Position numbers and translations under genes: made by a program | Notes under the pieces: generated by a model | The model's database searches: none | What the model was told of the DNA's origin: nothing | Seen by the model: only the letters and a program-made list of their open reading frames with translations | Shown here: positions 1-57,749 of the stretch, in pieces | Layout of the letters: every line of letters starts with the position of its first letter | How positions within the stretch are numbered: the stretch's first letter is position 1 | NCBI RefSeq assembly: GCF_056746865.1 | Contig: NZ_CM163382.1 | Strand: one strand, 5' to 3' | DNA: 64,000 nucleotides

Positions 1-619
1 TGAGTACAGCTGTGACAAAGGGATGCCAGCGTTTTTCAAACAGAATATGAGCGATCCCGGCTCGGCGCGGCGGTAAGGTCGCGACTTTGAGTTTTGGCTT
101 CTTCAACTCTTTCATCACCACCCAGAGCGTTATCACCAGCAAAACGGCAACCAACGGCCACACAGACAAATTAAAAGTATCAGCAATAGAGTTATGTTCA
201 GTAGTGTAGTGCTGCAAGGTTTGATTTAAACCACTGGCGTGTGGAGAACGCATCACCGCACTCATCACCATATAAGTGAAAAGCGCGATCCAACTGCCGA
301 TCAATCCCTCACCCGCGCGATACCAGGTCCCGGTGGCACATCCACCCGCCAGAACAATTCCCAGCCCGAAAAGATACCCACCTATAACAGTACCAAGCCA
401 CGGGAACGCCCCGGCTTCGTAAGTCAGTAGGCCCGCCTGAATTAACGCAAAAACCCCCACGCTTTGTACCGAAATTGCAATCAGCAAGGCGTAAAACATG
501 CGATTATTTTTCGCGATATACATATCGCGAAAACCACCTGTCAGGCAAAAACGCCCACGCTGCATGACAAATCCCAGCAGAGCACCACAAATTAGCCCGC
601 TTAATATCATTGAAAACAT
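1..619 (-). CDS. yeeE: YeeE/YedE-family inner-membrane transporter (thiosulfate uptake), N-terminal part; C-terminus lies beyond the window edge
   Basis: Minus-strand ORF starting at the ATG at 619 (MFSMILSGLICGALLGFVMQRGRFCLTGG...) and running open to position 1; matches the YeeE N-terminus and sits in the expected position next to plaP. Confidence 0.8.
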   Translation of the reverse strand, partial: MFSMILSGLICGALLGFVMQRGRFCLTGGFRDMYIAKNNRMFYALLIAISVQSVGVFALIQAGLLTYEAGAFPWLGTVIGGYLFGLGIVLAGGCATGTWYRAGEGLIGSWIALFTYMVMSAVMRSPHASGLNQTLQHYTTEHNSIADTFNLSVWPLVAVLLVITLWVVMKELKKPKLKVATLPPRRAGIAHILFEKRWHPFVTAVL

Positions 620-797
620 AAATTAATTAACCAGATGAATGTTAATGAGGAAATTATTCATGACTGGTGGAATGCAGACCAATAACCAAATTCTCTAAAT
701 TAGAACAAATGGTTATTAATGAGGATTTCGATAAAAAAGAATAAAAAAACCGGAGCCAAATATTCATTCGACTCCGGTTGATTATTAGAAAAGATGA

Positions 798-2156
798 TTA
801 TGCTACGTCTTCGTACTGCGGAACCGGGTTACGGAAGCTCTTGGTGACGCAAGCCAGGTAAATCAGACCGATAGCAGCCCAGATCAGACCCAGAACCATT
901 GAGCTTTCTTCCAGGTTAACCCACAGCGCACCAACGGTCAGCGCACCACACATCGGCAGGAACAGATACTGGAAGTGATCTTTCAGCGTCTTGTTACGCT
1001 TCTCACGGATCCAGAACTGCGAGATGACCGACAGGTTAACGAAGGTGAACGCCACCAACGCACCAAAGTTGATCAGCGCCGTAGCCATTACCAGGTCGAA
1101 GTTGATTGCCAGCAGGGCAATCGCGCCAACCAGGATGATGTTCATTGCCGGAGTACGCCATTTCGGGTGAACATAACCGAAGAAGCTTTTCGGGAATACG
1201 CCGTCACGACCCATTACGTACATCAGTCGCGCAACGCCTGCGTGCGCCGCCATACCAGACGCCAGTACGGTAATGGTGGAGAAGATCAGCGCACCAACCT
1301 GGAATGCTTTACCTGCAACATACAGCATGATTTCAGGCTGTGACGCATCCGGATCTTTAAAGCGAGAGATATCCGGGAAGTACAGCTGCAGGAAGTAAGT
1401 TGCAAAGATGAAGATCATGCCGCCAATCAGCGCGGTCAGGAAAATCGCACGCGGGATCACGCGCTCTGCATCTTTGGTTTCTTCCGACAGGTTGCTGATG
1501 CCGTCAAAGCCGGTAAAGGAGAAGCACAGGATTGTCGCCCCGGTAATCATCGGGATAACATGCGCATCGCCAGACCAGAACGGACGAGTGCTCGCCAGCG
1601 TACCAGCGCCTTCACCTTCAAATACGCCATAAACAACCATGCCCAGAATCACCGCGATCAGCACTACCTGCAACACGACGATTACAGTGTTGAAGTTCGC
1701 TACGGATTTCAGACTACGCAGGTTAAAGGCGGTCATAAAGGCCACCAGCGCCACCACAAACATCCACGATGGGATGGAAGGCACCAGAGCTTCAAAATAG
1801 ATTTTCGCCAGCAGAATGTTGATCATCGGCGCGAACAGATAGTCGAGCAGAGAAGACCAACCCACCATAAAGCCGACAGTCGGGCTAATGGATTTCTGGG
1901 CGTAAGTGTATGCAGAGCCAGCAGAAGGATAGCGGCGAACCAGTTTCCCGTAGCTCAGAGCCGTAAACAGGATCGCAATCAATGCGAACGCATAGGCTGT
2001 CGGCACATGACCATCCGTGAGGCCTGAAACGATACCAAAAGTATCAAACAGCGTCATCGGCTGCATATAGGCAAGACCCATCATTACAACCGGAACTAAC
2101 GTAAGCGTTTTACGCAATTCCACGCGAGAGGTGTTTGGAGTAACGTTATGCGACAT
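798..2156 (-). CDS. plaP: Putrescine importer, APC-family amino acid/polyamine permease
   Basis: ORF-track 454 aa protein; I place the start at [16 protein letters not shown] (ATG at 2156). Multi-pass membrane protein matching PlaP/YeeF. Confidence 0.85.
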
Positions 2157-2422
2157 GGTCATTCTCCTTTACGGTGATAACCGTCGCGTAAGCAAAAAAT
2201 TGCCCCATTTTTTTGGATTCCTCAGCGACAACAACTGTCGATTTTTAGTAAATATCTATCCGGTACGAAGCCCGGCCTCTTGGTATGAATGATTGGTTTG
2301 AAGCAAAAAATAACCGACGCTGATGAAACGTCGGTTTTTAGTCATTTTTTGACAGCGGCGCATTGTGCCTAAATGGGGGGGAAATGACAAGAGAATGAGA
2401 GGCTTGTCATAATAATTTTTCT

Positions 2423-3352
2423 TTAAATGGCTGATTTTCCGTCATCAGATTTTGCATAAACACCGGCGATCGCACTATTTGCTAAAATTTCATCCCGCCA
2501 CCAGCCGCTGGCAAGCCCTGCGGTCTGTTCGTTCCAGCCAATCCAGACGGGTTCAAAGAGAGTTTGGGCGACCACTTTCTTCTCGATTAACGCGCCACTA
2601 TCGAGAAAACGTTGTGCCAGATAACGGGGTAAATAGCCGCAGCCGAGGCCGCTAATTTGCAGCTCCAGCTTGGTTTTAAAATCGAAAACGGTAATGGCTT
2701 CTTGTTCGTCGAGAAGTTGTGAGGCCGTAGAAGCGCCTGCCTGCGCAGTATCCCCCACCACAATCGCCCGATATCGCTTAATAATACGACGGTTTAACGG
2801 CTCTTCTTCCAGGGCTAACGGATGATGAGGCGCGACCGCAAAGACTTGTTCCAGATCGCCCAACCGTGAAAAACCAAACTCACTGGAAGATGGTGGCTCA
2901 TGCATCGCGCCAACAATAATATCCGCTCGCCCCTGAGTCAGGGCATCCCAGGAACCACCGAGTACGCCATTGATAAACTTCAGGCGCGTCACGCTATGAT
3001 GTTGATAAAAAGCTTCAATCAGTGGCGCAAGCAGAGAAAAAGGAAACGTGTCGTCCACGCCAATCACCAGCTCGTTTTCCCAGCCTTCATGCAGTTTGAT
3101 CGCCTGCTTTTCCAGTTCTCGCACGGTATGCAGAACTTCCCGCCCTTTCTCTAATAACATTTTTCCGGTACGGGTGAATTTAGCGCGGTGACCGCTACGA
3201 TCAAGCAATTGAATATTAAGGTCGCTTTCCAGCTTGTGAACGGTGTAACTCAGAGCGGACGGCGTCTTATAGAGTTTGGCCGACGCCGCCGCAAAACTGC
3301 CTTCTTTTTCTAAGGCATCGAGGATCATCAACACATCCAGCAGTGGTTTCAT
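2423..3352 (-). CDS. yeeY: LysR-family transcriptional regulator
   Basis: N-terminal helix-turn-helix (MKPLLDVLMILDALEKEGSFAAASAKLYKTPSALSYTVHKLE) with a LysR substrate-binding domain; start trimmed to MKPLL. Confidence 0.8.
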   Translation of the reverse strand: MKPLLDVLMILDALEKEGSFAAASAKLYKTPSALSYTVHKLESDLNIQLLDRSGHRAKFTRTGKMLLEKGREVLHTVRELEKQAIKLHEGWENELVIGVDDTFPFSLLAPLIEAFYQHHSVTRLKFINGVLGGSWDALTQGRADIIVGAMHEPPSSSEFGFSRLGDLEQVFAVAPHHPLALEEEPLNRRIIKRYRAIVVGDTAQAGASTASQLLDEQEAITVFDFKTKLELQISGLGCGYLPRYLAQRFLDSGALIEKKVVAQTLFEPVWIGWNEQTAGLASGWWRDEILANSAIAGVYAKSDDGKSAI

Positions 3353-3397
3353 ACACGCCCCCTTGCAGTGCATGCGGCGTCCTGCTGGCGTGATCGT

Positions 3398-4222
3398 TTA
3401 CTCCAGCGGCATTACCAGCGGATCGGGATACTGGTATTCAAATCCCAGTTCATTACAAATCCGACTGCCATCAATAATCTTACCTTTGCCGCTGTCCAGA
3501 CTATTTCTGAACTGCGGAGGCTCCAGCCCCAGTAAACGGGCCATCTGCGGATAGAAAACATTACGCGCAGGGTGAGCTGGCGCACATATATTATAGATGT
3601 GTCCGCCTTTAGGTGCCTGTAACAACAGAGTGATAGCGCCAATAACATCTTCTAAATGGACTAAATTAACACCATGTTCACCATCAGGCGCGGTTTTTCC
3701 GGCAAAGAAGCGTCCGGGATGACGTCCCGGTCCGACCAGCCCCGCAAGACGCAGAATATCGACCGAAGTACCGGGTAAATTGTGCAGCCAGTCTTCGAGT
3801 TCTTCTAATACTCGTCCACTGTTGGTTACCGGATTACGCGGGGTAGTTTCTTTCACCGTGCCTTGCGCGTCGCCATAGACAGATGTTGAGCTGGTAAAAA
3901 TAATGCGGGGAATACGATGGGCCAGCGCGCTATCCACTAACTCTTGTACCGCTTGTAAATAGAACTCATCGCCGGGGCCGCTACGACGTGCCGGAAGCGT
4001 AATGACCAGCGCATCGACATCCATCAGGGCATCCAGATCGTCAGAATCGCAAACTAACTCAGGCTCCATGCGAAGCAGATAGCTATCAATGCCACTCATT
4101 CGGGCCGCTTCGACACCATCTTGTGTGGTTTTACTCCCGGTGACTTGCCAGCCTCGCGCTGAAAGTGACATCGCCAGCGGCATGCCTAACCACCCTAACC
4201 CGACAATTGCGACCTTTTTCAT
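3398..4222 (-). CDS. yeeZ: NAD(P)-binding Rossmann-fold epimerase/dehydratase-like protein
   Basis: 274 aa ORF with N-terminal GxxGxxG motif (MKKVAIVGLGWLGMPLA); position between yeeY and yoeB. Confidence 0.8.
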   Translation of the reverse strand: MKKVAIVGLGWLGMPLAMSLSARGWQVTGSKTTQDGVEAARMSGIDSYLLRMEPELVCDSDDLDALMDVDALVITLPARRSGPGDEFYLQAVQELVDSALAHRIPRIIFTSSTSVYGDAQGTVKETTPRNPVTNSGRVLEELEDWLHNLPGTSVDILRLAGLVGPGRHPGRFFAGKTAPDGEHGVNLVHLEDVIGAITLLLQAPKGGHIYNICAPAHPARNVFYPQMARLLGLEPPQFRNSLDSGKGKIIDGSRICNELGFEYQYPDPLVMPLE

Positions 4223-4304
4223 CCGTTATCTCCTGATACACCTTAGATCTATAAGGCTACGCTAGCGTATCAAAACTGACAATTCATTCTATGAATGAAT
4301 CTGT

Positions 4305-4559
4305 TCAATAATGATAACGACATGCTGCAATGAGCAGTGAATCGTCGGTAACCGCGTATACCAGACGGTGCTCCTCTGTAATGCGTCGGGACCAGAAACC
4401 TGACAAATTATGTTTCAGGGGTTCTGGCTTCCCCTTACATTCAAATGGCGTTCTGCGGGTATCTTTGATAAGTTCATTGATCTTTTTAACAATTCGCTTA
4501 TCTGTTTCCTGCCAGTACAGATAATCATCCCATGATTCCTCAGACCAGATTAGTTTCAC
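4305..4559 (-). CDS. yoeB: Type II toxin YoeB (ribosome-dependent mRNA interferase)
   Basis: 84 aa ORF ([61 protein letters not shown]...); overlaps the upstream antitoxin gene by 4 nt. Confidence 0.9.
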
Positions 4560-4807
4560 TCAATAATGTCCTTTTCTGTTCCTTTGCCTGATTTCAGGCT
4601 ATCGATTGAGTCCATCAATCTCCGGGCGTTAGCGGGGGAGCGCAGTAGATAAGCCGTCTCTTCCAGCGAGTTGTATTCTTCGAGTGACATCAGAACACAA
4701 GCCTCTCCATTCTGACGAGTAATAAGGATCGGGGCATGATCTTCAACGGCTTTCATCATTGTTGCCGACAAATTCTGACGCGCTTCGCTGTAGCTAATTG
4801 TACGCAT
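4556..4807 (-). CDS. yefM: Type II antitoxin YefM
   Basis: Start placed at [31 protein letters not shown] (ATG at 4807), giving the 83 aa YefM; the track's N-terminal extension is rejected. Confidence 0.9.
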
Positions 4808-4822
4808 GTCAATCTCCTCTTT

Positions 4823-4840
4823 TGTACAGTTCATTGTACA
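4823..4840 (-). promoter_or_regulatory. yefM-yoeB operator palindrome (TGTACA-N6-TGTACA) just upstream of the yefM start
   Basis: Sequence tgtacagttcattgtaca read directly at 4823-4840, immediately 5' of yefM on the minus strand; YefM-YoeB is known to autorepress at TGTACA repeats. Confidence 0.6.
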
Positions 4841-5089
4841 ATGATGGGCGTTAATTAACTATTTATTAATTAGTTTGTAGATCAAGGTATTGTCAGTGAG
4901 ACGAAAATCCAGGCTTCGCTATTTTTGGTGCCGTCAGCTTAGAGGACAGTCCTCTTAGCCCCCTCCTTTCCCCGCTCATTCATTAAACAAATCCATTGCC
5001 ATAAAATATATAAAAAAGCCCTTGCTTTCTAACGTGAAAGTGGTTTAGGTTAAAAGACATCAGTTGAATAAAAATTCACAGAGACTTTT

Positions 5090-5140
5090 ATGACACGCGT
5101 TCAATTTAAACACCACCATCATCACCATCATCCTGACTAG
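5090..5140 (+). CDS. hisL: his operon leader peptide
   Basis: ATG ACA CGC GTT CAA TTT AAA CAC CAC CAT CAT CAC CAT CAT CCT GAC TAG = MTRVQFKHHHHHHHPD, with seven consecutive His codons. Confidence 0.95.
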   Translation: MTRVQFKHHHHHHHPD

Positions 5141-5200
5141 TCTTTCAGGCGATGTGTGCTGGAAGACATTCAGATCTTCCAGTGGTACATGAACGCATGA

Positions 5201-5238
5201 GAAAGCCCCCGGAAGATCACCTTCCGGGGGCTTTTTTA
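5201..5238 (+). terminator. his attenuator (leader Rho-independent terminator)
   Basis: GC-rich inverted repeat agcccccggaag...cttccgggggct followed by a T run (ttttttatt), between hisL and hisG. Confidence 0.85.
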
Positions 5239-5285
5239 TTGCGCGGTTGATAACGGTTCAGACAGGTTTAAAGAGGAATAAGAAA

Positions 5286-6185
5286 ATGACAGACAACACT
5301 CGTTTACGCATAGCTATGCAGAAATCCGGCCGTTTAAGTGATGACTCACGTGAATTGCTGGCGCGCTGTGGCATTAAAATCAATCTTCACACCCAGCGCC
5401 TGATCGCGATGGCAGAAAACATGCCGATTGATATTCTGCGCGTGCGTGACGACGACATTCCCGGTCTGGTAATGGACGGCGTGGTAGACCTTGGGATTAT
5501 CGGCGAAAACGTGCTGGAAGAAGAGCTGCTTAACCGCCGAGCCCAGGGTGAAGATCCGCGCTACTTTACCCTGCGTCGTCTGGATTTCGGCGGCTGCCGA
5601 CTTTCACTGGCAACGCCGGTTGATGAAGCCTGGGATGGCCCACTCTCCTTAAACGGTAAACGTATCGCCACCTCTTATCCTCACCTGCTCAAGCGTTATC
5701 TCGACCAGAAAGGCATCTCTTTTAAATCCTGCTTACTGAACGGTTCTGTTGAAGTCGCCCCGCGTGCCGGACTGGCGGATGCGATTTGCGATCTGGTTTC
5801 CACCGGTGCCACGCTGGAAGCAAACGGCCTGCGCGAAGTCGAAGTTATCTACCGCTCGAAAGCTTGCCTGATCCAACGCGATGGCGAAATGGAAGAATCC
5901 AAACAGCAACTGATCGACAAACTGCTGACCCGTATTCAGGGCGTGATCCAGGCGCGCGAATCAAAATACATCATGATGCACGCACCGACCGAACGTCTGG
6001 ATGAAGTCATCGCCCTGCTGCCAGGTGCCGAACGCCCAACCATTCTGCCGCTGGCGGGTGACCAACAACGCGTAGCGATGCACATGGTCAGTAGCGAAAC
6101 CCTGTTCTGGGAAACGATGGAAAAACTGAAAGCGCTGGGTGCCAGTTCAATCCTGGTCCTGCCGATTGAGAAGATGATGGAGTGA
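5286..6185 (+). CDS. hisG: ATP phosphoribosyltransferase
   Basis: Start trimmed to [20 protein letters not shown] (ATG at 5286), 299 aa; first structural gene after the attenuator. Confidence 0.95.
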
Positions 6186-6190
6186 TCGCC

Positions 6191-8561
<2,371 letters not shown>

Positions 8562-8562
<1 letters not shown>

Positions 8563-9628
8563 TGAGTCAGAAGTATCTTTTTATCGATCGCGATGGAACC
8601 CTGATTAGCGAACCGCCGAGTGATTTTCAGGTGGACCGTTTTGACAAACTCGCCTTTGAACCAGACGTGATCCCGGAACTGCTGAAGCTGCAAAAAGCGG
8701 GCTATAAACTGGTGATGATCACCAACCAGGATGGTCTGGGGACGCAAAGTTTCCCGCAGGCGAATTTCGATGGCCCGCACAACCTGATGATGCAGATCTT
8801 CACCTCGCAAGGCGTGCAGTTTGATGAAGTGCTGATTTGTCCGCACCTGCCCGCAGATGAGTGCGACTGCCGTAAACCGAAAGTAAAACTGGTGGAGCGT
8901 TATCTGGCTGAGCAAGCGATGGATCGTGCCAATAGTTATGTGATTGGCGATCGCGCGACCGACATTCAACTGGCGGAAAACATGGGCATTAATGGTTTAC
9001 GCTACAACCGCGAAACCCTGAACTGGCCGATGATTGGCGAGCAACTCACTAAACGAGACCGTTACGCCCATGTAGTGCGCAACACCAAAGAGACGCAAAT
9101 TGACGTTCAGGTGTGGCTGGATCGCGAAGGTGGCAGCAAGATTAACACCGGCGTTGGCTTCTTTGATCACATGCTGGATCAGATCGCCACCCACGGCGGT
9201 TTCCGTATGGAAATCAACGTCAAAGGCGATCTCTATATCGACGATCACCACACCGTCGAAGATACCGGCCTGGCGCTGGGCGAAGCGTTAAAAATTGCCC
9301 TCGGCGACAAACGCGGTATTTGCCGCTTTGGTTTTGTGCTGCCGATGGACGAATGCCTTGCCCGCTGCGCGCTGGATATCTCTGGTCGCCCGCACCTGGA
9401 ATATAAAGCTGAGTTTACCTACCAGCGCGTGGGCGATCTCAGCACCGAGATGATCGAGCACTTCTTCCGTTCGCTCTCTTACACCATGGGCGTGACGTTG
9501 CACCTGAAAACCAAAGGTAAAAACGATCATCACCGTGTAGAGAGCCTGTTCAAAGCCTTTGGTCGCACCCTGCGCCAGGCCATCCGCGTGGAAGGCGATA
9601 CCCTGCCCTCGTCGAAAGGAGTGCTGTA

Positions 9629-9629
<1 letters not shown>
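8562..9629 (+). CDS. hisB: Bifunctional histidinol-phosphatase / imidazoleglycerol-phosphate dehydratase
   Basis: Start at [15 protein letters not shown] (ATG at 8562), a HAD phosphatase N-terminus followed by the IGPD domain; 355 aa. Confidence 0.95.
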
Positions 9630-11707
<2,078 letters not shown>

Positions 11708-11714
<7 letters not shown>

Positions 11715-12319
11715 CAGAACAACAACGTCGCGAACTGGACTGGGAAAAAACCGACGGACTTATGCCGGTGATTGTGCAACACGCGGTATCTGGCGAAGTG
11801 TTAATGCTGGGCTATATGAACCCGGAAGCCTTAGACAAAACCATCGAAAGCGGCAAAGTCACCTTCTTCTCGCGCACTAAACAGCGACTATGGACCAAAG
11901 GCGAAACGTCGGGCAATTTCCTCAACGTAGTAAATATTGCGCCGGACTGCGACAACGACACGCTACTGGTACTGGCGAATCCTATCGGACCAACCTGCCA
12001 CAAAGGCACCAGCAGCTGCTTCGGCGACACCGCTCACCAATGGCTGTTCCTGTATCAACTGGAACAACTGCTCGCCGAACGCAAATCTGCCGACCCGGAA
12101 ACCTCCTATACCGCCAAACTGTATGCCAGCGGCACCAAACGCATTGCGCAGAAAGTGGGCGAAGAAGGCGTAGAAACCGCACTGGCAGCGACGGTACATG
12201 ACCGCTTTGAGCTGACCAACGAGGCATCTGACTTGATGTATCACCTGCTGGTGTTGTTGCAGGATCAGGATCTGGATTTAACAACGGTGATTGAGAACCT
12301 GCGTAAACGTCATCAGTGA
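11708..12319 (+). CDS. hisI: Bifunctional phosphoribosyl-AMP cyclohydrolase / phosphoribosyl-ATP pyrophosphatase
   Basis: 203 aa ORF ([25 protein letters not shown]...); last gene of the operon. Confidence 0.95.
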
Positions 12320-16474: not shown

Positions 16475-16882
16475 TTATAACCACTTAGAAAAAGCCTTAG
16501 CTTTCAGTGGGTCAAATGGCCCCTCCTTTATCTCCAACATAAGGGCTTTTGGTGACAAGCATTTGACACTATGTATATCTCCTGGGGAAAATTCCACGAC
16601 GCTTATTCCCGTACCGTCTCCAACCACAAACTGTTTTTGGATCTCACCATTTTGCTCATACAAGCAAACTTCTAATTGCCCTTGCATGACGACAAACATT
16701 TCCCACTGATGCGGTAACTCATGCCAATGGGGTTCAACATAGCTGTCGCGGACAAATGCAATAAGTAAACGTTGAACCTTCTCCTGATGAGATGCGTGCA
16801 ATAAATAATGAGCGCGCAAACGTTCAGAATTTGCTGCAGTGCGAAAAAGTTCATCCAGAATATTGTCATCAACTAAACGCAT
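16475..16882 (-). CDS. wbuC: Small cupin-like protein of the type found at the end of fnl-containing O-antigen clusters (WbuC-like)
   Basis: 135 aa ORF immediately downstream of a WbuB-like glycosyltransferase with a 10-nt overlap; assignment is by size, position and resemblance, not a verified function. Confidence 0.6.
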   Translation of the reverse strand: MRLVDDNILDELFRTAANSERLRAHYLLHASHQEKVQRLLIAFVRDSYVEPHWHELPHQWEMFVVMQGQLEVCLYEQNGEIQKQFVVGDGTGISVVEFSPGDIHSVKCLSPKALMLEIKEGPFDPLKAKAFSKWL

Positions 16883-18081
16883 TCTCCTGCCTCCAGTCGG
16901 ACTTCGATAATATGTGCCGCCGATTCAACCGAAAATTGAGACTTTAACAACACATTAGCGTTCTGACCTAACTGCTTTCTTAAAGCTGAATCACTAAGAA
17001 GCAATTGTGCAGATTTAAACAGTTTATCATCTTCACCATTAACATGAATGAAACCGGCCCTGTGCTTATTAATTACATCCATTAAATCATTGCCGCCATT
17101 CACACTCCCAAGGATCGGGATTGATTGAACCATATACCCTAGTAATTTCCCAGGGAAATTATGTGAAGAATGGCGAGATGAAAGGGAGAACAGGCCGACA
17201 TCAACTTCAGATAAAATTAATTTAAACTCTTCCTGGTTCACTGAAGGTAGGTGAGTGAAATTAGTTAAATTCCATTCTGCAGCAAGAGATTTTATCAGGT
17301 CAACTTCATCACCCTGCCCTATAAACAGGAAATGAGCATCATGATAACGCATCATATTACGCGCAAGGCGCATTAAGTTCGCCATATCCTGAGCATGCCC
17401 AATATTACCGCCATAGAAAAAAATGACTTTATCTTTTAGATCGTATTTTTGACGAAGTGAATGATAATCATCGCTGGCAGACACAGGAGTCATTGAGGCC
17501 CAATTACGTAAAACTTCACACGGATAACCTTTATTGGTCTGACGAAATATCTCAAGATTCTTATCAGACATTACCCCTATCCGGTCAGCCTGCTGATATG
17601 ATTTTTTTTCAAAATACCTGAAATATTTTTCAATTGGCGAACCGGCTTTCAACATACCTGCATCAATGACCCACTGTGGAAACATATCCCTTAGGACCAG
17701 GTAGCTTGGGCACTGGCATCGCTGCTTTATTTTTTTAACCAAGTCGCCCCAAAAAATAGAGGGGGAATAATAAACGATACCATCAAATGTATCATGTTGA
17801 ATGAGGTGCTTAAATGCGCGCCATGCACGAAAAGATAAAAGAGTTTCATTTATGGCACGCTTAGCCTTACCTACATCCTTTAAAGGTCCACTTTTGAAAC
17901 GCCAAACCTTTATACCATCAATCATACTAACAGAATAGATTGCTTGTAATGTGATGTCAGGCGTAATTACAGTTACATCATGGCCTCTGCTCAACAATTC
18001 AAGGCCTAACTCATGAAACATTTTAGCCCCAACACGTGTGCTATGGGGCAAATAATCATCAATGATTAATGCAAGTTTCAT
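16873..18081 (-). CDS. wbuB: GT4-family glycosyltransferase, probable L-FucNAc transferase (WbuB-like)
   Basis: 402 aa ORF directly downstream of fnlABC; in known clusters this position holds the transferase that uses the UDP-L-FucNAc made by FnlABC. Confidence 0.7.
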   Translation of the reverse strand: MKLALIIDDYLPHSTRVGAKMFHELGLELLSRGHDVTVITPDITLQAIYSVSMIDGIKVWRFKSGPLKDVGKAKRAINETLLSFRAWRAFKHLIQHDTFDGIVYYSPSIFWGDLVKKIKQRCQCPSYLVLRDMFPQWVIDAGMLKAGSPIEKYFRYFEKKSYQQADRIGVMSDKNLEIFRQTNKGYPCEVLRNWASMTPVSASDDYHSLRQKYDLKDKVIFFYGGNIGHAQDMANLMRLARNMMRYHDAHFLFIGQGDEVDLIKSLAAEWNLTNFTHLPSVNQEEFKLILSEVDVGLFSLSSRHSSHNFPGKLLGYMVQSIPILGSVNGGNDLMDVINKHRAGFIHVNGEDDKLFKSAQLLLSDSALRKQLGQNANVLLKSQFSVESAAHIIEVRLEAGECV

Positions 18082-19211
18082 TAGTATTGTTTCCAGACAA
18101 CCCGTTTAACGTAGTCAGTATATGAATGGATAATACGCACAACTTTATCTGAAACATTGGGCATGCTATAGTCACTGACCTGACGAAGTAAGCGTACTTC
18201 TCCACGAGGCTGTGTTGCAATAATTTCTAATGCCTGTAAAACGCGCTCAGATTCAAGACCGACCATCATTACTGCCCCTTCTTCGAAGCCTTCCGGGCGT
18301 TCGTGCGCTTCTCGTATATTGAGTGCAGGGAAGTTCATAATGGAGGACTCTTCTGTAATAGTCCCACTATCCGATAAAACAGCACGTGCATTTTTTTGCA
18401 GATGGTTGTAATCGTGAAATCCTAATGGCTTAAGAAGCAAGATATTTTTATGGAATTGAATACCGTTTTCATTGATGCGGTTACGAGTGCGAGGATGAGT
18501 AGAAACAACTACCGGGACATCATATTTTTCAGCCACGGTATTAAGTATATTCGCCAGTTTCGCAAGCTGTTTAGGGGTATCAACATTTTCTTCTCTGTGG
18601 GCACTTACCACAAAGAAATTCCCAGGTGTTAAATTCAGGCGAGAAAGTACATCGGAACCATCAATCTGCGGCATATAATGAGTGAGTACTTCAAACATTG
18701 GGCTACCGGTTTTAATAATTCTATCGGCTGGTACACCTTCAGCCAGAAGATATTCACGAGCGATATCGCTATATGTCATATTGATATCAGCAGTGTGGTC
18801 AACTATTTTTCTGTTAGTTTCTTCCGGTACGCGTTGGTCAAAACAACGATTCCCCGCTTCCATATGGAAGATCGGAATTTTTCGACGCTTTGCTGGTATT
18901 GCTGAAATACAGGAGTTAGTATCGCCAAGAACTAACATAGCTTCTGGTTTTTCCTGTTCAAGGACATCATCAACTTTAATGATAACTTGTCCAATAGTCT
19001 CTGCTGCATTTTTACCTGCGGCATTAAGAAAATAATCTGGTTTGCGAACACCCAAATCTTTGAAAAAAACTTCATTCAATTCATAATCGTAGTTTTGGCC
19101 AGTATGAATAATAAGGTGGTCACAATATTCATCTAATTTTGCAAGGACACGCGAGAGTCGAATAATTTCTGGACGAGTCCCAACAACCGACATGACTTTC
19201 AATTTTTTCAC
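18081..19211 (-). CDS. fnlC: UDP-N-acetylglucosamine 2-epimerase (non-hydrolysing), FnlC/Cap5G-like
   Basis: 376 aa ORF ([29 protein letters not shown]...) of the WecB/Cap5G epimerase type; third gene of the UDP-L-FucNAc pathway. Confidence 0.85.
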
Positions 19212-20314
19212 GATAAAACTCTCGCTATAGTATCTGGTTCAGAACGATTAAATATTTCATTTGCCCAAAGCATAACAACTAGCTCATCCGAGCCATTATT
19301 AGTGATGTCATGCGTCCACCCCGGAACTGTTTCAACAATTTTAAAATCATCTGAGGAGACATTAAATTCATATCGCTCACCCGTGACAATATTTTCAAAT
19401 TTGAAACAAGCACTTCCTCGGATGACAATAAATTTCTCATTTTTGGAATGATGATAATGTCCCCCCCGAGTAATTCCTGGATGCGCAGTAAAGAACGAAA
19501 ACTGGCCCGCGTTTTTCGTTTTCAATACTTCACAGAATACCCCTCTATCATCACTATAAGAAGGAACCGTATACGCAAACTGTTCAGGAGACAGATAACT
19601 TAACCATGTTGAGTACAATGCACGTGTAAATCCATTACCTACATCTTCGGTGATTAATGTTTGGCGACTTTCTTTAAATCGGTAAATTAATTGCGCCACT
19701 TCACCAACAGTAACAGAATAAATTGGACCGAATGTCCTGTAACCAGTTTCGTTCGCTCCTTCCAATAGCTTTAATATGTCAGAACAAAAGTCATCTATAT
19801 ACACCAGATCAACAACTGCTGAAGGATCATTAATTGTAATAGTTTCATCATTTGCAATGCGATGGCAGAAAGTTGCTATAAAGGAGTTATAATTTGGGCG
19901 ACACCACTTACCGAATACATTCGGCAAGCGATAAATATAATATTTGGCATTTGTCGTTTCCCCATACTGCTGAATGATTTTCTCCGCAGTCGCTTTACTC
20001 TTTCCATAAGCGTTATCACATTCAGCCTGGATGGAAGAACTCAGCATGATAGGAGTATTTTTATTATTTTTTTTCAGAACATCAACAATCTGTTGAGTTA
20101 CGTTGCTATTTCCCTCTTCAAATTCACTCTCCTTCACAGGACGATTTACTCCTGCAAGGTGAAAAATGAAATCTGCCTGCTTAAGTCCCTGCTCTAAATC
20201 CGCCAAAGAAGAGTTACGATCTATCGTAATAAGTTCGTTATAACCAGCCTCCTTAAGGCGGAAAACCAAATTACGGCCGATAAACCCTGAAGCACCAGTA
20301 ACTAAAATTTTCAT
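19208..20314 (-). CDS. fnlB: UDP-L-FucNAc pathway reductase/epimerase, FnlB/Cap5F-like
   Basis: ORF with short-chain dehydrogenase N-terminus ([17 protein letters not shown]); start placed at the ATG at 20314, but 20332 or 20341 are also possible. Confidence 0.8.
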
Positions 20315-20315
20315 A

Positions 20316-21350
20316 TTATGAATCCAACTCATAATCTTCACCAGAACGAATTGCCCGGATAAAAGGAAGTTTTAGCAGTAATTTTTTCATACCCTCAACA
20401 TCTAATCTCTCAGTATTATGAGAGTTATAATCTTCCACTTCCGAGATACGACGGTCACCATGTTCCACATATTTACCATAGTTCAAATCGCGGAGATCTG
20501 GTGGAACACGATAATAATCACCCATATCTTCCGCTGCTATCATTTCCTCTCGGCTCAATAACGCTTCGTAAAGTTTTTCCCCGTGTCGAGTTCCAATAAT
20601 ATTGATTGGATGTTCATGGGCATTTAGCAATTCCTTAAGTGCAATGGCTAATGTTTGAATTGTTGCCGCAGGAGCTTTCTGAACGAAAATATCACCGTTA
20701 TTTCCATGCTCGAAGGCATAAAGGACCAGATCAACAGCATCCTCAAGCGTCATCATGAAACGAGTCATATTGGGATCGGTAATGGTCAATGGTTTACCAG
20801 ATTTGATTAGATCAACAAACAATGGGATGACCGATCCACGTGAAGCCATTACATTCCCATAACGTGTTCCGCAGATAACTGTTTTTGAACTATCAAGATT
20901 ACGTGATTTTGCAACAATGACTTTTTCCATCATTGCTTTAGATATGCCCATTGCATTAATAGGATATACGGCTTTATCTGTACTCAGACATACAATTCGC
21001 CTAACGCGATTAGCTATTGCAGCTTCTAGAACGTTTTCAGTACCTAAAATATTCGTTTTTACAGCTTCCATGGGGTGGAATTCGCAGGAAGGCACTTGCT
21101 TCAGGGCTGCAGCATGATAAATAAAATCAACACCTCGAGAAGCATTGAGAATACTCGAATAATCGCGAACATCACCTATATAGAACTTAAGCTTCTGATT
21201 ATTATATTTTTTCCTCATGTCATCTTGTTTTTTTTCATCCCGGGAAAAAATACGTATTTCTTTGATATCTGTATCAAGAAAACGTCTTAGAACAGCATTA
21301 CCGAAAGACCCCGTACCACCAGTAATTAACAATATTTTACCATTAAACAT
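20316..21350 (-). CDS. fnlA: UDP-GlcNAc 4,6-dehydratase/5-epimerase, FnlA/Cap5E-like
   Basis: Start trimmed to MFNGKILLITGGTGSFGNAVLRRFLD (ATG at 21350), 344 aa. Confidence 0.85.
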   Translation of the reverse strand: MFNGKILLITGGTGSFGNAVLRRFLDTDIKEIRIFSRDEKKQDDMRKKYNNQKLKFYIGDVRDYSSILNASRGVDFIYHAAALKQVPSCEFHPMEAVKTNILGTENVLEAAIANRVRRIVCLSTDKAVYPINAMGISKAMMEKVIVAKSRNLDSSKTVICGTRYGNVMASRGSVIPLFVDLIKSGKPLTITDPNMTRFMMTLEDAVDLVLYAFEHGNNGDIFVQKAPAATIQTLAIALKELLNAHEHPINIIGTRHGEKLYEALLSREEMIAAEDMGDYYRVPPDLRDLNYGKYVEHGDRRISEVEDYNSHNTERLDVEGMKKLLLKLPFIRAIRSGEDYELDS

Positions 21351-21358
21351 AATACACC

Positions 21359-22462
21359 TTATTTTAAAATAGAGAAGAACTGTGGCCAAGATGAACGACT
21401 ATCTTTTTCATAAGGCCTAAAATTGAGCTTCGAATTGCCATTTAAAACATTAAACAACGCCCTAGCCCAGCCATCTTCATCATTGTAAATTACAAAATCT
21501 ACGCCGCTATAATTCTTTAAAACATCACGGGCATAAGGAAGATCACTACTAATGATTTTTTTTCCTAAACTAGCAGCTTCGATGAGTGGTAACCCATATG
21601 ATTCTATATAGCTAGGAAAAACAATAAAAGATGCCGCCATATATTTTTTTTGCAATTTCGAGTATGAAAGAACACCGAGATAATCAATGTTTTTGCTTAG
21701 GTTATTTAATTGCACAAACTTATCAAAATTTTTGTACCTATTCTTTTCAAAAGTCACTTGGAATTTCAGATCATCTATAAAATACTTTTGCTTTAAAATA
21801 ACCAACGCCTTCAGAATGACCAAATGATTTTTATAGGTAAGTGGTGTCGCTGGATATAAGAGTGTTTTAACAGATACATCCTTATCTACATCAAATTTAG
21901 TATTATTAAATGTTTTGATATCAGGTTTTATAACAAGGACCCTTTCGGAACTAATCTTATCACATTGATCCAACACTCCTTTTTTCATCCAATTCGTTTG
22001 CACTACGATGGTTGTATTTGCATTCACATATTTAAATATAAAATAGGAATAAAAATTTTTATATAAAAAAAGTTTTACGTTATCGAACGTGATATCATTT
22101 AAAAAAGAATCAACTTTACTGAAAGGAATTGGCTGGTGCAAGTAAATAATCTGCTCATAAGGAACATTCAAACTGGAATTTTGTAGAGAAATTACTTTCT
22201 TAACGTTAATCTTATGTTCAGAGATAAACTTTCGACAACCGAACCAATCCCAATATATTCTTTTCAACCATCCTTTTGGTGTGTTTTCTATGTAAATGAT
22301 GTTATCACAGACCGGCAACTCTAATCCCGCAGATACAAACATAATATAGTCATTTGAATTTTGTGATGCATGTTTTATAAATTGCTTTAATATAGTTAAT
22401 GCACCTCCGGAGGCCAGCGCCGTCGCACTTACAACAATATAACTTTTGGACAAATCAAACAT
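21359..22462 (-). CDS. GT4-family glycosyltransferase of the O-antigen cluster
   Basis: 367 aa ORF with the C-terminal GT4 motif (FPSYIESYGLPLIEAASLGKKII); AT-rich codon usage like its neighbours. Confidence 0.7.
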   Translation of the reverse strand: MFDLSKSYIVVSATALASGGALTILKQFIKHASQNSNDYIMFVSAGLELPVCDNIIYIENTPKGWLKRIYWDWFGCRKFISEHKINVKKVISLQNSSLNVPYEQIIYLHQPIPFSKVDSFLNDITFDNVKLFLYKNFYSYFIFKYVNANTTIVVQTNWMKKGVLDQCDKISSERVLVIKPDIKTFNNTKFDVDKDVSVKTLLYPATPLTYKNHLVILKALVILKQKYFIDDLKFQVTFEKNRYKNFDKFVQLNNLSKNIDYLGVLSYSKLQKKYMAASFIVFPSYIESYGLPLIEAASLGKKIISSDLPYARDVLKNYSGVDFVIYNDEDGWARALFNVLNGNSKLNFRPYEKDSRSSWPQFFSILK

Positions 22463-22738
22463 ACAGTTCCTAAGTGGTTATCTAAAGCTTCTTATTAACA
22501 TAAATTTTCAACAAATGAAAACAGACAGAGCAAAGTACACTTCCATAGGAAGTTATCCGAATGAATGCAGGATATTATATACTACATAAGAAGCCATATC
22601 CTATCTTTCCCAAATCGAAACATTTTCTGTTCTTGCCCTCTTATTTCCAGACAGGGATTGTATCTTAAGTTAGATATATGTCCAAGCCTACCTCTTATTT
22701 TAAGATACATCTACTGTCTGGTGTTTTCGGGGGTCAAC

Positions 22739-23229
22739 TCAGATCACATTATTAAGAATCTCACCACACACAACACTATTTGCGCCAATAACTACACCAT
22801 TACCTATACACGCACCTGGTAATATTGTCACGTTTTCACCAATCCACACACGCTCTTCAATATACACAGGTGCAGATTCAAGAGACCTAGATGAAGGAAT
22901 AATAGTTGGTGAACTATGGATATCAGATTTAGAAAAAATACCATGATTATGATCACTAATAAATACTTTACTTGCTATTAATGTATCTCTACCAATAATG
23001 GCATTATTAATAGCCGCGATGTGGAACATAATCATTAATTTGAACATTTTCTCCAATAGACACTATAGCATCCATAAATGTATCACCTCCTAATACTACA
23101 CCTGATGTAAACCCTTTTCCAAAACTAACACTTCCATCTTTTCTAAGATAACATGAAAATCTAATAACCCTAACATTTGAACAAAATAAAACTTTTGTTA
23201 AGAATAATCTTTAAGAAGCCTAAGACCAC
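22739..23229 (-). pseudogene. Degraded hexapeptide-repeat acetyltransferase gene
   Basis: The only intact ORF (22739..23056) encodes hexapeptide-repeat sequence (HIAAINNAIIGRDTLIASKVFISDHNHG...IGENVTILPGACIGNGVVIGANSVV). The N-terminal part (...GKGFTSGVVLGGDTFMDAIVSIGENVQINDYV) lies upstream in a different frame, consistent with a 1-nt insertion near 23005, and has no in-frame start codon. Confidence 0.65.
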
Positions 23230-23332
23230 CATAAAGGCCATATCGTTTAATTAACTTAATTTTTTATGCACATTATTTATGCCCTGGTTAGAATATATGT
23301 TATTTACGTATTAATGATAACATAATCTACTA

Positions 23333-24562
23333 TTATATAGCCATTTTGACATTAGATTTCATCAAGATAATTTTAGCATGATATTTGCATAAAAATATTG
23401 ATGAAAATAACATAAACACATAGGGATTTATATAGCCAGCACCACGTATAAAAAGGGGGATGAAGAAACACATATAGAAACTATATGCTAAAATATACTG
23501 CGGTGGATATCTCTTATTTTTTTTGAAACGCAGATAAAATCGAAAAAAAATAAAAAGATAGAAAATGCACATTATTGCACCAATAAACCCAAACTCAGAT
23601 ATTAACTTCGAAGAAATAAATGAGCCATCGTATATATTTAACATAGGGGCATCAAGATCAGCTAAAATTTGTTGATACACTCCTACCTCCCCATTCACGC
23701 CCATTTGTTGAAAACCAATACCAAGACCATAACTTGTAATAAAATTCAAGAAAGCTCTTTCAATTCCTGAAAGATATACAAGCACTGATAAGTTCGTAGT
23801 ATTTTTAAAATCAAGCCGCGATGTATAGTAAGAAATGTCTAAATCACTTAATATCATGGAAAAAATCCATGCCCCTAAAAATATAACAATAGTTTGCCTT
23901 ATTGTTATTTTTTTCATCACAAAAACACTAATCACAATGCCTACTAACATCGTTAAGTTCTGGATACCTAACGCAATACCCAAAGATAATATATAGAGCA
24001 ATAGTACCCCCCCCCCCCTTGTATAGTATAAACAAAATGAAAAGATAGGTATGAAAACCAATGCAAATGCTGATGGTTCAGGAAAAAGAATCATACTTTT
24101 ATCATGTATAATCTCAGTTTTCTGTAAAAGAATACTTATAATGCCAATAAGGCAAAGAAATGCGAACAAATAAAAGACGGATCTCTTAAGTATTTCTTCA
24201 GAACATAACCACAAAGTCTGTGCATAACAAGAGGAGACGTATGCCATTATTAAGATGCTATACATTGAAAGTACAATTTTAAATGATAAAACCTGTTCAA
24301 TATTAAATAGCATACTTAACAGACAGTTAAAACACAACAATATGAATAATACTACTATTATTAGCAAATTATCTTTGCAAGTGTTTTTAGCCCTTAAAAA
24401 AACAAAAAGCAATATAATGGAGATTATCGTTGAAATGCTAAAATTATCAATCCCTAATGTATAAAACAAAAAATCAGGAAAAACAAGGAAAAGTAAAAAT
24501 AAAAATATAATTCTTTTTGTGCTATTTGGTTCTTCTATTCTTATGCTCATACATAATCTCAA
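23333..24562 (-). CDS. wzy: O-antigen polymerase
   Basis: 409 aa highly hydrophobic, AT-rich ORF with many predicted transmembrane segments, between glycosyltransferase genes; contains a G12 tract on the coding strand. Start uncertain (24562 or 24550). Confidence 0.7.
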   Translation of the reverse strand: MRLCMSIRIEEPNSTKRIIFLFLLFLVFPDFLFYTLGIDNFSISTIISIILLFVFLRAKNTCKDNLLIIVVLFILLCFNCLLSMLFNIEQVLSFKIVLSMYSILIMAYVSSCYAQTLWLCSEEILKRSVFYLFAFLCLIGIISILLQKTEIIHDKSMILFPEPSAFALVFIPIFSFCLYYTRGGGVLLLYILSLGIALGIQNLTMLVGIVISVFVMKKITIRQTIVIFLGAWIFSMILSDLDISYYTSRLDFKNTTNLSVLVYLSGIERAFLNFITSYGLGIGFQQMGVNGEVGVYQQILADLDAPMLNIYDGSFISSKLISEFGFIGAIMCIFYLFIFFRFYLRFKKNKRYPPQYILAYSFYMCFFIPLFIRGAGYINPYVFMLFSSIFLCKYHAKIILMKSNVKMAI

Positions 24563-25670
24563 TTATCTTTTTTGCCCAATTGTCCCAATGCAATATTTTA
24601 TTATATCTAACTCTTGCGTTTTGGGAGTAGTTTTGATAAGTCTCTACGGAGCTAATTATTTTATGAATTGCATTTCCAAAGTGCTTATAGTCTGACGAGT
24701 CTTTAATTAATATCCCCGTCCTTTCGTTGATAACTATAGAACTAATTCCACCTGTATCTGTGGCGACAACTGGCAATCCATAAGCTGCAGCTTCACAAAA
24801 TACCATTCCGTAACATTCAGCAATGGTTGGTAAAAGAAGTATATCAGCGTTAGATAACACATCGATGAATTTCTGATATTCTTCAACGTTATTTTTATTT
24901 ATTTTATCAATTAATTCAACCCAAGCAGGTAAAATCTCTTGATTCGGAGTACATCCACAAATTTTTAGTCTAACATCGATCCCATATAACTCTCTTACAT
25001 ATTCAATTGCTTTCAATGCTGTTTTACCACCTTTTCTTTCCCAATCGACCCCCAAGAAAAGACAAGTATAACTAATCTTTTGAATTATAGTTTTATTAGC
25101 AAAATGAATATCTTCAAATAAATTAGCCCCCCATGGTATTTCAACTAATTTATCAGAATCCAATCTGTAATAGTCCTTGCAAAAATCCATTGCCCATTTA
25201 GATGGGAAAGATACGACTGTTGCTTTTTCAATAGCCTTGCGTTCGATTAAACTTGCATCCTCATCATTTATAATTGTTTTTTTATTTAAATTCGGATAAT
25301 AGTTTTTTAATTGATCATATGTTGTATCCGATAGATATATTATTGGTATATTTGTTTCTAAAAAAGCAATTTGTGAAGAACCTGCAGGTGCAATAATAAA
25401 ATCCAAACCATCAATTTTTTTTAATTTTCTCTCAAATATTCTACCGTAATACTTGGAAAGCAACTTCGAACGACTATAATCATATTCCTTTCCGAAACAC
25501 CTTAATATTAATTTATATGCTTTTAACATGTATACCATATAGCTATTTACCGGTCCTAATATTTCAATGGAAATATTTCTCTTCGATAATGCCTTTAGCA
25601 TATAATAAGGTGTGCCAGACCAACTGGATGTAGATAGTGGATCATAAGCAGATAAAAAAGCCACTTTCAT
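24522..25670 (-). CDS. GT4-family glycosyltransferase of the O-antigen cluster
   Basis: 382 aa ORF with GT4 motif (LPTIAECYGMVFCEAAAYGLPVVATDTGGISSIV). Confidence 0.7.
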   Translation of the reverse strand: MKVAFLSAYDPLSTSSWSGTPYYMLKALSKRNISIEILGPVNSYMVYMLKAYKLILRCFGKEYDYSRSKLLSKYYGRIFERKLKKIDGLDFIIAPAGSSQIAFLETNIPIIYLSDTTYDQLKNYYPNLNKKTIINDEDASLIERKAIEKATVVSFPSKWAMDFCKDYYRLDSDKLVEIPWGANLFEDIHFANKTIIQKISYTCLFLGVDWERKGGKTALKAIEYVRELYGIDVRLKICGCTPNQEILPAWVELIDKINKNNVEEYQKFIDVLSNADILLLPTIAECYGMVFCEAAAYGLPVVATDTGGISSIVINERTGILIKDSSDYKHFGNAIHKIISSVETYQNYSQNARVRYNKILHWDNWAKKIIEIMYEHKNRRTK

Positions 25671-25736
25671 TAAATACCCTTTAATAACATATCAAACTAT
25701 ACATTTATTTAATAACACCATCATTAAATGCATATT

Positions 25737-26702
25737 CTAATGGCATTTGCTACCTTTATTTCGTTTGAAGTTAAACATAACATTCAAACATCTTTTCATC
25801 TTATTAAACTCACCTCTTCTAGCACGGTTAAATGCTACAACAAAGAGTGACAACCATACCGTCCAATAATATTGTGGATAAAACTTTTCTGTAATGACCA
25901 GCCTATTTTTTATTGAACAAAGGTCAGCTATCATACTCTTTCCCCCATCAGTACTTGCACCTATCTTATGATAAACCAAACTATCTGAGCAAATACCTAA
26001 TTTAAAGTTCTTTGCTTTTGCTCTGAGGCAAATATCTAACTCTTCATAGTATAAAAAATATTCTTCATTCATCAATCCAACTGTTTCCAAACATTCTCTA
26101 GAGAAAAACATTGATGCGCCAATTATATAATCTATATTATTGCTAATGACTTCATCATCATATTTTTTGGAAACTAATCTTCCCATCTCATAATTTTTTG
26201 TAGTGCATAACCATCTGTAATGTACCCCACCCAGTCCTTGCTGCATCTCTCTATCGGTAAAATAGACTAAACGAGAACCGCAAATCCCTATATTTTTATC
26301 TGAATCACATTTACTAATTAAATGAGTTAAAGCCTCTTTATCCACTTCAGTATCATTATTCAGAACCCAGACGTATTTCATATCCTCCTGATTAAGTGCG
26401 AGCTCTATTCCAATGTTATTACCACTTGCGTACCCATTATTTTTCGGAGATTGTATTAATATGATTTTATCGTTTTCTAATGTTTGATATTTACTTCTAT
26501 CCTCATACTTCACCTCAATGAAACTTTTACCAGTAATATATAATGCATTAAGATTTTCTTTTATAGAATCATATGAGTTATCCGTAGAACAGTTATCAAC
26601 AACGATAATTTTATAATCATCATAATTTAAATTCATTAAACTTTTAACACAATTAATGGTATCTATAGCCCCATTCCAATTTAACACTACAATATATATC
26701 AT
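25737..26702 (-). CDS. GT2-family glycosyltransferase, possibly a rhamnosyltransferase
   Basis: 321 aa ORF with GT2 N-terminus (MIYIVVLNWNGAIDTINCVKSL...VVDNCSTDNS); the sugar specificity is inferred only from the neighbouring rml genes. Confidence 0.7.
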   Translation of the reverse strand: MIYIVVLNWNGAIDTINCVKSLMNLNYDDYKIIVVDNCSTDNSYDSIKENLNALYITGKSFIEVKYEDRSKYQTLENDKIILIQSPKNNGYASGNNIGIELALNQEDMKYVWVLNNDTEVDKEALTHLISKCDSDKNIGICGSRLVYFTDREMQQGLGGVHYRWLCTTKNYEMGRLVSKKYDDEVISNNIDYIIGASMFFSRECLETVGLMNEEYFLYYEELDICLRAKAKNFKLGICSDSLVYHKIGASTDGGKSMIADLCSIKNRLVITEKFYPQYYWTVWLSLFVVAFNRARRGEFNKMKRCLNVMFNFKRNKGSKCH

Positions 26703-28511: not shown

Positions 28512-28513
28512 TT

Positions 28514-57742: not shown

Positions 57743-57749
57743 TAAAACA

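Follow-up and report, generated by a model that had tools for sequence, protein, structure and literature searches.

Positions 5090-5238 of the window (the whole stretch of DNA analysed, 64,000 nt of contig NZ_CM163382.1 from RefSeq assembly GCF_056746865.1) almost certainly contain the ordinary, intact leader (hisL) and attenuator of the Escherichia coli his operon, which works by ribosome-mediated transcription attenuation. The Rfam family His_leader (RF00514) matches 5116-5239 over its full length (model positions 1-126 of 126) with 131.7 bits and E = 1.3e-21, compared with a gathering score of 49 bits, consistent with the statement in the first-pass annotation that the attenuation region is intact. 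This is the sole above-threshold match in a low-threshold Rfam scan of 4600-5400. Sub-threshold matches to the Spot_42, NsiR1, Thr leader, Phe leader and miRNA models in the same interval were driven by the terminator and were rejected as chance (for example, Thr_leader scored 23.6 bits and Phe_leader 21.2 bits, with a cut-off of 55). All sequence-level defining features of the His_leader family are present in the window, and the leader is placed immediately 5' of the his biosynthesis operon and co-oriented with it (plus strand). The 456 nt at 4835-5290 have exact (100%) matches in many RefSeq E. coli chromosomes, in which they are annotated as hisL, 'His leader region' and hisG; thousands of E. 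coli genomes carry the leader annotation on this DNA, and a match to this segment is present in 5423 of 5426 complete genomes in the RefSeq E. coli comparison. K-12 MG1655 differs from the window by six substitutions in these 456 nt, and its hisL DNA is identical (0/51 nt differ). Two of the changes relative to K-12 fall in the transcribed region: the window has A at 5074 (C in K-12), within the 5' UTR, and A at 5187 (G in K-12), between segments D and E, the latter being the single substitution 3' of the hisL start codon; neither affects any pair of the A:B, B:C, C:D, D:E or E:F hairpins. Judged by this identity, the his attenuator here is in all probability one that is already known, an allele of the enterobacterial his attenuator with essentially the K-12 sequence. 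The his attenuator switch was described in the 1970s and is among the founding examples of transcription attenuation.

The leader peptide gene hisL occupies 5090-5140 on the plus strand and comprises 16 codons plus TAG (translation MTRVQFKHHHHHHHPD followed by the stop), and is annotated as hisL in identical RefSeq DNA. It reads ATG ACA CGC GTT CAA TTT AAA (CAC CAC CAT CAT CAC CAT CAT) CCT GAC TAG. The seven consecutive His codons reported in the first-pass annotation are thus found in full, at 5111-5131 on the plus strand (CACCACCATCATCACCATCAT), and would serve as the sensor for charged tRNA-His. A pattern of seven CAY codons has this one match on either strand of the 64-kb window and none in 100 dinucleotide-preserving shuffles of the sequence. 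Segment A spans the last three His codons (5-7) and the Pro and Asp codons that follow them, the stop codon TAG lies at 5138-5140 and segment B runs from 5140. The Shine-Dalgarno-like motif upstream of hisL, AGAG, is weak. A putative his promoter can be read from the sequence at 5022-5051 (plus strand), with a -35 hexamer TTGCTT at 5022-5027, an 18-nt spacer and a -10 hexamer TAGGTT at 5046-5051, which we take to be the his promoter of Salmonella and E. coli. A consensus promoter scan of 4700-5400 returned no site, as is expected because the his -10 element is weak, with 3/6 matches to consensus. We infer a transcription start near 5059, which gives a 180-nt leader RNA ending at the attenuator, the length reported for this RNA (PMC10989985). 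This start is supported by the published residue numbering, in which U49, G127, U128 and G129 fall on T5107, G5185, T5186 and position 5187 (G in K-12), respectively (PMC10989985). The his promoter is the reported target of ppGpp control, in an operon regulated primarily by attenuation (PMC10989985).

The terminator hairpin and T run had been placed 60 bp downstream of hisL, and the stem begins 61-64 nt past the last base of the stop codon. This E:F intrinsic terminator, that is, the attenuator, spans 5202-5237 on the plus strand and consists of a 14-bp stem (5202-5215:5221-5234), the loop AUCAC (5216-5220) and a U run (5232-5237). In the DNA, the six-T run TTTTTT at 5232-5237 begins within the terminator 3' arm. 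The hairpin is seen as an inverted repeat (5197-5215 and 5221-5239, with a 5-nt spacer) with a G+C-rich core (5205-5215:5221-5231), has a folding energy of -32.8 kcal/mol in isolation, corresponds to the third helix of the Rfam consensus structure and lies 50 nt upstream of hisG (start 5286). The published attenuator has a 14-bp stem, a 5-nt loop and a U run (PMC10989985), a description that E:F in the window fits. A consensus-based terminator scan of 4700-5400 found nothing. We infer that this miss is an artefact of the scanning rule, because greedy stem extension via A-U and G-U pairs would consume the T run, which the rule expects to find 3' of the stem.

The leader RNA (5090-5240, 151 nt) folds at -65.4 kcal/mol, compared with -33.8 +/- 3.7 kcal/mol for shuffled sequences (z = -8.6; 0/200 shuffles as good), and its unconstrained MFE structure is A:B plus C:D plus E:F, the same three helices as in the Rfam consensus. 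All hairpins described here are on the plus strand. The A:B hairpin (5123-5158), the first Rfam helix, pairs 5123-5129 and 5132-5136 with 5145-5149 and 5151-5158 in the MFE and has an energy of -11.8 kcal/mol in isolation; the his pause hairpin forms the upper part of A:B (5132-5136:5145-5149) and is found within the MFE folds. The C:D hairpin (5158-5183, pairing 5158-5166:5175-5183) is likewise present in the MFE, forms an inverted repeat, corresponds to the second Rfam helix and has an energy of -12.7 kcal/mol in isolation. The B:C hairpin (5140-5167), the first half of the antiterminator configuration, has 9 pairs (5140-5148:5159-5167) worth -12.1 kcal/mol in isolation and enters the MFE only when a ribosome placed on His codons 3-6 covers segment A. 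The D:E antiterminator (5173-5218) is again an inverted repeat, with pairs 5173-5180:5211-5218 plus 5182:5209 and 5184-5186:5205-5207; it has an energy of -15.4 kcal/mol in isolation and, by its predicted pairing, ties up the terminator 5' arm. B:C is incompatible with A:B and C:D, and D:E is incompatible with C:D and E:F. The check proposed in the first-pass annotation, a structure prediction for alternative antiterminator and terminator pairings, therefore recovered two sets of hairpins, B:C plus D:E on the one side and A:B, C:D and E:F on the other, that exclude each other. A his transcriptional pause site is predicted at 5151-5161 on the plus strand, with G-10 at 5151, Y-1 at 5160 and G+1 at 5161. 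The RNA 3' end would be U5160, 11 nt after the pause hairpin. This placement applies the published description of the pause signal, a hairpin between -30 and -11 with the consensus G-10 Y-1 G+1 (PMC9291695), to a sequence that is identical to K-12 at these positions, and is probable on that identity.

Folding with a ribosome was modelled by masking an assumed 30-nt footprint, extending from -15 to +14 relative to the first base of the A site. In the full-length leader, E:F formed in every state because it is by far the most stable element, so that these folds do not discriminate between states, and transcripts cut before the terminator 3' arm were folded instead (from 5090, or from the putative start at 5059, to 3' ends at 5218-5222). 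With the A site on His codons 3-6, transcripts ending at 5218-5222 adopted B:C (8-9 of 9 pairs) together with D:E (7-8 of 8 pairs). Unmasked RNAs with the same ends adopted A:B and C:D and left E free, with the exception of the unmasked window allele ending at 5222, in which the MFE was A:B plus D:E by 0.3 kcal/mol while C:D still held 94-98% of the ensemble. These folds predict that the leader contains mutually exclusive hairpins and that the position of the ribosome chooses between them. At lengths of 5186-5212, C:D (-12.7 kcal/mol) was slightly ahead of B:C (-12.1 kcal/mol) also when the ribosome was stalled. When the ribosome had reached the stop codon and the length was 5222, D:E beat C:D by 0.9 kcal/mol (-24.9 versus -24.0 kcal/mol), and at lengths of 5226 and beyond E:F was in the MFE for every ribosome position. 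Equilibrium folding alone does not reproduce the decision, so in this model the switch has to be kinetic, depending on the order of synthesis and a short dwell at the U run, and a kinetic switch would agree with the classical model.

The following scheme is proposed for the leader in the window. RNA polymerase would start near 5059, transcribe hisL and pause at U5160 behind the hairpin at 5132-5149, and the loading of a ribosome on hisL would free the paused polymerase, such that translation and transcription proceed in step. If charged tRNA-His is plentiful, the ribosome would reach TAG at 5138-5140 and cover both A and B; C:D would then form once D has been made, E would stay free, and E:F and the U run would end the transcript at about 180 nt. 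If charged tRNA-His is scarce, the ribosome would stall in the seven His codons and cover A only, B:C and D:E would form, and the terminator 5' arm would be occupied as the polymerase crosses the U run, allowing read-through into hisGDCBHAFI. If hisL is not translated, A:B, C:D and E:F would all form, leading to termination. A hairpin model with identical names has been published (PMC4046918, PMC10989985), in which efficient translation leads to E:F, slow translation to B:C plus D:E and no translation to A:B, C:D and E:F. In the Salmonella leader, which has the same leader peptide with seven His codons, read-through rises when charged tRNA-His runs short, and expression depends on leader translation (PMC4046918). 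Pausing, ribosome-polymerase coupling and the response to histidine are carried over from the K-12 and Salmonella literature to the window and are expected here on the strength of the matching sequence.

Both pairing schemes are conserved across Enterobacteriaceae. Leaders were retrieved from species-representative genomes by a DNA pattern scan (seven His codons followed by Pro-Asp-stop), a pattern that biases the set towards close relatives. The scan found 76 loci in Escherichia, Salmonella, Citrobacter, Enterobacter, the Klebsiella group, Kluyvera, Kosakonia, Leclercia, Mangrovibacter and other genera, which reduced to 53 distinct leaders, or 54 including the window. The His run is kept in 54/54 distinct leaders, a count that is partly circular because the retrieval pattern required it. 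The two pairing schemes are 99.5% and 99.6% paired across the 54 leaders; A:B (all 12 pairs), C:D and B:C (9 pairs) are 100% paired and D:E is 99.4% paired. No compensatory change was found in any pair of either conformation among these 54 leaders. Covariation is uninformative here because the stems are nearly invariant, and the comparative support is that of conservation only. Within the non-coding part (5141-5234), 18 of the 24 columns unpaired in both conformations vary, compared with 15 of the 70 paired columns (Fisher P = 4e-6, a value that ignores phylogeny), and variation is concentrated in the loops of C:D and of the terminator and in the D-E spacer. Among the 28 positions used in both conformations, the sole common polymorphism is A/G at 5163 (A in 38 leaders, G in 16). 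Either base allows a standard pair in each helix, with A-U changing to G-U in C:D and U-A to U-G in B:C, a pattern that a dual constraint on overlapping helices would predict. Folding of the untranslated RNA further predicts a candidate long-range helix (5097-5103:5190-5196), with 99% pairing across the 54 leaders and likewise no compensatory change.

The his operon downstream appears intact and functional, as the first-pass annotation had concluded from the attenuator. Eight intact open frames at K-12 length follow on the plus strand (5286-12319), with 0-6 amino-acid differences each from K-12, and near-identical genomes are annotated likewise: hisG (5286-6185), hisD (6191-7495), hisC (7492-8562), hisB (8562-9629), hisH (9629-10219), hisA (10219-10956), hisF (10938-11714) and hisI (11708-12319). 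The junctions are a 5-nt gap at hisG/hisD, ATGA with a 4-nt overlap at hisD/hisC, TGATG with a 1-nt overlap at hisC/hisB, TAATG (1 nt) at hisB/hisH, TGATG with a 1-nt overlap at hisH/hisA, a 19-nt overlap at hisA/hisF and a 7-nt overlap at hisF/hisI. The earlier description of tight coupling is borne out, as is the TGATG type that it gave for hisC/hisB and hisH/hisA; the ATGA type, which it placed at the same two junctions, belongs to hisD/hisC. Gene order is standard for E. coli, with yeeY, yeeZ and yoeB-yefM (divergent from the leader), then hisL-hisGDCBHAFI, wzzB, ugd and gnd, and beyond gnd the O-antigen cluster, galF and the colanic acid cluster. The RefSeq complete genome closest to the window is that of strain F11, at 99.92% identity over 1-57743, and none matches the whole window. 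The wzy gene in the window is one uninterrupted 409-codon ORF. The PGAP 'frameshifted' flag on wzy was considered as a sign of a rough phenotype and rejected, as a serotyped O25:H16 strain has the same flag. As a discovery, this copy of the attenuator matters little. Its practical value is as a landmark for the E. coli chromosome segment from yeeE to dgcE, in which a functional-looking his operon stands beside the O-antigen and colanic acid clusters.

The window carries a rare allele at leader RNA position +129 (A5187, plus strand), where K-12 and all 53 other aligned leaders, which represent other Enterobacteriaceae species and include a second E. coli, have G. The exact 60-nt context of A5187 (5158-5217) is found in 70 of 5408 E. 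coli genomes (about 1.3%). In the K-12 allele, G5187 is predicted to pair with the base that opens the His run (C5111), and this pair is worth -3.0 kcal/mol in the untranslated fold. The helix 5111-5116:5182-5187, which closes the untranslated leader, is lengthened by the C5111-G5187 pair, and A5187 abolishes that pair. With A5187, the ensemble probability of C:D is still 94-98% in the untranslated RNA and the stalled-ribosome folds are unchanged; the effect of the allele on the switch is predicted by these models to be small. The same base change has been engineered, as G129A in the proposed rDnaA box 3 of Yao et al. 2023 (PMC10989985), where it lowered the DnaA RIP signal about 3-fold and left reporter expression without significant change (PMC10989985). 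That A5187 slightly raises basal read-through of the attenuator in the source lineage, and so represents a naturally occurring regulatory variant of a classic switch, is a speculation to which we give little credence. Were it true, the disputed DnaA model could be tested on A5187 as it occurs in nature. Studies of the proposed DnaA role, or of the closing helix of the untranslated RNA, could use the allele as a natural variant that is already to hand.

Yao et al. place a DnaA-dependent riboswitch over the classical switch, in which DnaA bound to boxes on the leader RNA would block the ribosome and D:E and so strengthen attenuation. The proposed rDnaA box 1/2 at about +46-56 corresponds to 5104-5114 of the window and box 3 at +126-134 to 5184-5192 (PMC10989985). 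The published box positions have clear counterparts in the window, the D-E interval hardly varies among the 54 leaders, the leader RNA is enriched in DnaA RIP in vivo, and deletion of box 1/2 raised transcription 5-fold and that of box 3 3-fold (PMC10989985). However, the deletions also take bases of the conserved helices 5097-5103:5190-5196 and 5111-5116:5182-5187, which confounds them with structural effects, and the authors saw no DnaA-RNA binding in vitro and state that there is no conclusive evidence of direct binding (PMC10989985). Relative to the DnaA-box consensus, each box is mismatched at two bases, and box 3 in the window at three, being a natural equivalent of G129A; the roughly 3-fold loss of RIP signal in that mutant, at reporter levels that did not change significantly, argues against an essential role for DnaA here. 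We consider such a layer unlikely.

Two further explanations are, in our view, scarcely credible. A constitutive terminator or insulator, with the His-codon ORF an untranslated coincidence and no switching, would accord with the finding that equilibrium folds of the full-length RNA contain the terminator in every case and with the weakness of AGAG, the only Shine-Dalgarno-like motif before hisL. Such a terminator 50 nt before hisG would, however, silence an intact eight-gene operon, and published genetics for the identical sequence show that expression depends on leader translation (PMC4046918). Seven His codons in a row are, moreover, not expected by chance, and the ORF, the position of its stop and both alternative pairings are conserved across genera. 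The leader could instead sense uncharged tRNA-His or histidine directly, in the manner of a T-box or riboswitch. T-boxes control his genes in Firmicutes and Actinobacteria (PMC9413887), and the literature describes the his leader as resembling tRNA-His (PMC10989985). Against this, no T-box or riboswitch family was detected at E <= 1 in 4600-5400, nor any T-box at gathering score in the window, and such a mechanism would leave the conserved, translated His run without a function.

Ribosome-mediated attenuation at hisL, the reading we prefer, can be compared with several known systems. The T-box leaders of his genes in Firmicutes and Actinobacteria, like the his leader, couple the charging of tRNA-His to a choice between terminator and antiterminator, but T-boxes recognise uncharged tRNA by direct binding and do without a leader peptide; the his leader in the window is unrelated to T-box control. 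The DnaA-dependent riboswitch proposal (Yao et al. 2023, PMC10989985) concerns the same RNA, with A at +129 in box 3 of the window, and its mechanism is unproven. The trp (trpL), Thr, Leu, Phe and Ile-Val leaders follow the same logic as the his leader, with a leader ORF rich in cognate codons, a pause hairpin, mutually exclusive antiterminator and terminator structures and the position of the ribosome as the signal. The trpL leader has four segments (1:2, 2:3 and 3:4) and two Trp codons, whereas the his leader has six segments forming two serial alternative hairpins, and seven His codons. The his operon is not known to have a dedicated repressor. The his leader of E. coli K-12 and Salmonella enterica occupies the same locus, between yefM-yoeB and hisG, encodes an identical leader peptide and has the same segments A-F, the same terminator with a 14-bp stem and 5-nt loop, the same pause hairpin and the same pause consensus as the leader in the window.

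Folding of the untranslated his leader RNA predicts two long-range helices, both of which enclose the attenuator hairpins A:B (5123-5158) and C:D (5158-5183). The outer helix, GCGUUCA:UGAACGC, pairs hisL codons 3-5 (5097-5103) with the spacer between segments D and E (5190-5196), and the inner one, (C)ACCAC:GUGGU(G), pairs His codons 1-2 (5111/5112-5116) with the 3' side of D (5182-5186/5187). The outer helix is paired at 99% across 54 aligned leaders, that is, the window and 53 other distinct Enterobacteriaceae leaders, with no compensatory changes among them. Neither predicted helix is contained in the Rfam His_leader consensus (RF00514), which consists of helices A:B, C:D and E:F.

A rare allele affects the predicted inner helix. 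Position 5187 (+), corresponding to +129 of the leader RNA, is A in the window and G in E. coli K-12 and in all 53 other aligned leaders, and the exact 60-nt context of A5187 occurs in 70 of 5,408 E. coli genomes. In the untranslated fold, A5187 abolishes the predicted C5111-G5187 pair, which is worth -3.0 kcal/mol. A5187 is also the window counterpart of G129A, a change engineered in the proposed rDnaA box 3 (PMC10989985; window 5184-5192).

The same allele is among the differences from E. coli strain F11. Identity to F11 over window 1-57743 is 99.92%, with differences very unevenly spread: 34 mismatches fall within 1-5000, one indel and three mismatches (5187, 5260 and 5282) within 5000-5282, and just 5 differences in the following 52 kb (5283-57743). 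This uneven spread suggests a recombination boundary close to where hisG begins, on the flank of the O-antigen region. The his leader region is 100% identical to a set of genomes other than F11, for example MRY15-131.

The O-antigen gene cluster (16475-31434, minus strand) lies between gnd and galF and belongs to the O25 family. It encodes rfbBDAC, O25 wzx and wzy, the L-FucNAc genes fnlA/wbjC/wecB, and glycosyltransferases. The interval holding it (14000-38000) is covered at >=80% in just 34 complete genomes, including ABU 83972. PGAP tags wzy as 'frameshifted' in DNA identical to the window, and applies the same tag in a serotyped O25:H16 strain; since wzy is a single unbroken ORF of 409 codons in the window (23333-24562), the tag looks like an annotation artefact. 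Between yegH and asmA, 745 nt (57744-58488, plus strand) stand in place of 273 nt in F11, and this segment was found in 910 of 5,426 E. coli genomes. Domain matches identify a small type II toxin-antitoxin pair there (ORFs 57817-58155 and 58127-58435, plus strand), comprising a toxin of the Gp49/RelE-ParE family (PF05973, 1e-30) and an HTH_37 antitoxin of the XRE type (PF13744, 4e-22).

Further Rfam matches lie on the minus strand. Two JUMPstart elements (RF01707) are at their expected positions: the first (31509-31547, 56.8 bits) precedes rfbB, where the O-antigen cluster begins, and the second (55679-55717, 57.3 bits) precedes wza, where the colanic acid cluster begins. An algC RNA motif (RF02929, 77.3 bits) occupies 41153-41202 in the cpsB-cpsG intergenic region, directly upstream of the phosphomannomutase gene cpsG. 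Between yeeY and yoeI, 2303-2377 matches the enterobacterial sRNA STnc240 (RF02074, 68.2 bits versus 55), and the matched stretch finishes with a terminator-like hairpin and U run.

Two repeat features precede the his promoter. Directly upstream of yefM (minus strand), inverted repeats with TGTACA, consisting of TTGTACA...TGTACAA and the palindrome TCATTGTACAATGA (4822-4844), are what we take to be, probably, the yefM-yoeB operator. The other feature is a near-perfect 23-bp palindrome, GCTTAGAGGAC-A-GTCCTCTTAGC (4937-4959), which separates yefM from the his promoter, lies roughly 100-120 bp before the point where his transcription begins and, to our knowledge, has been assigned no function. 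Its arms are complementary at 10 of 11 positions in the window, compared with 11 of 11 in K-12.
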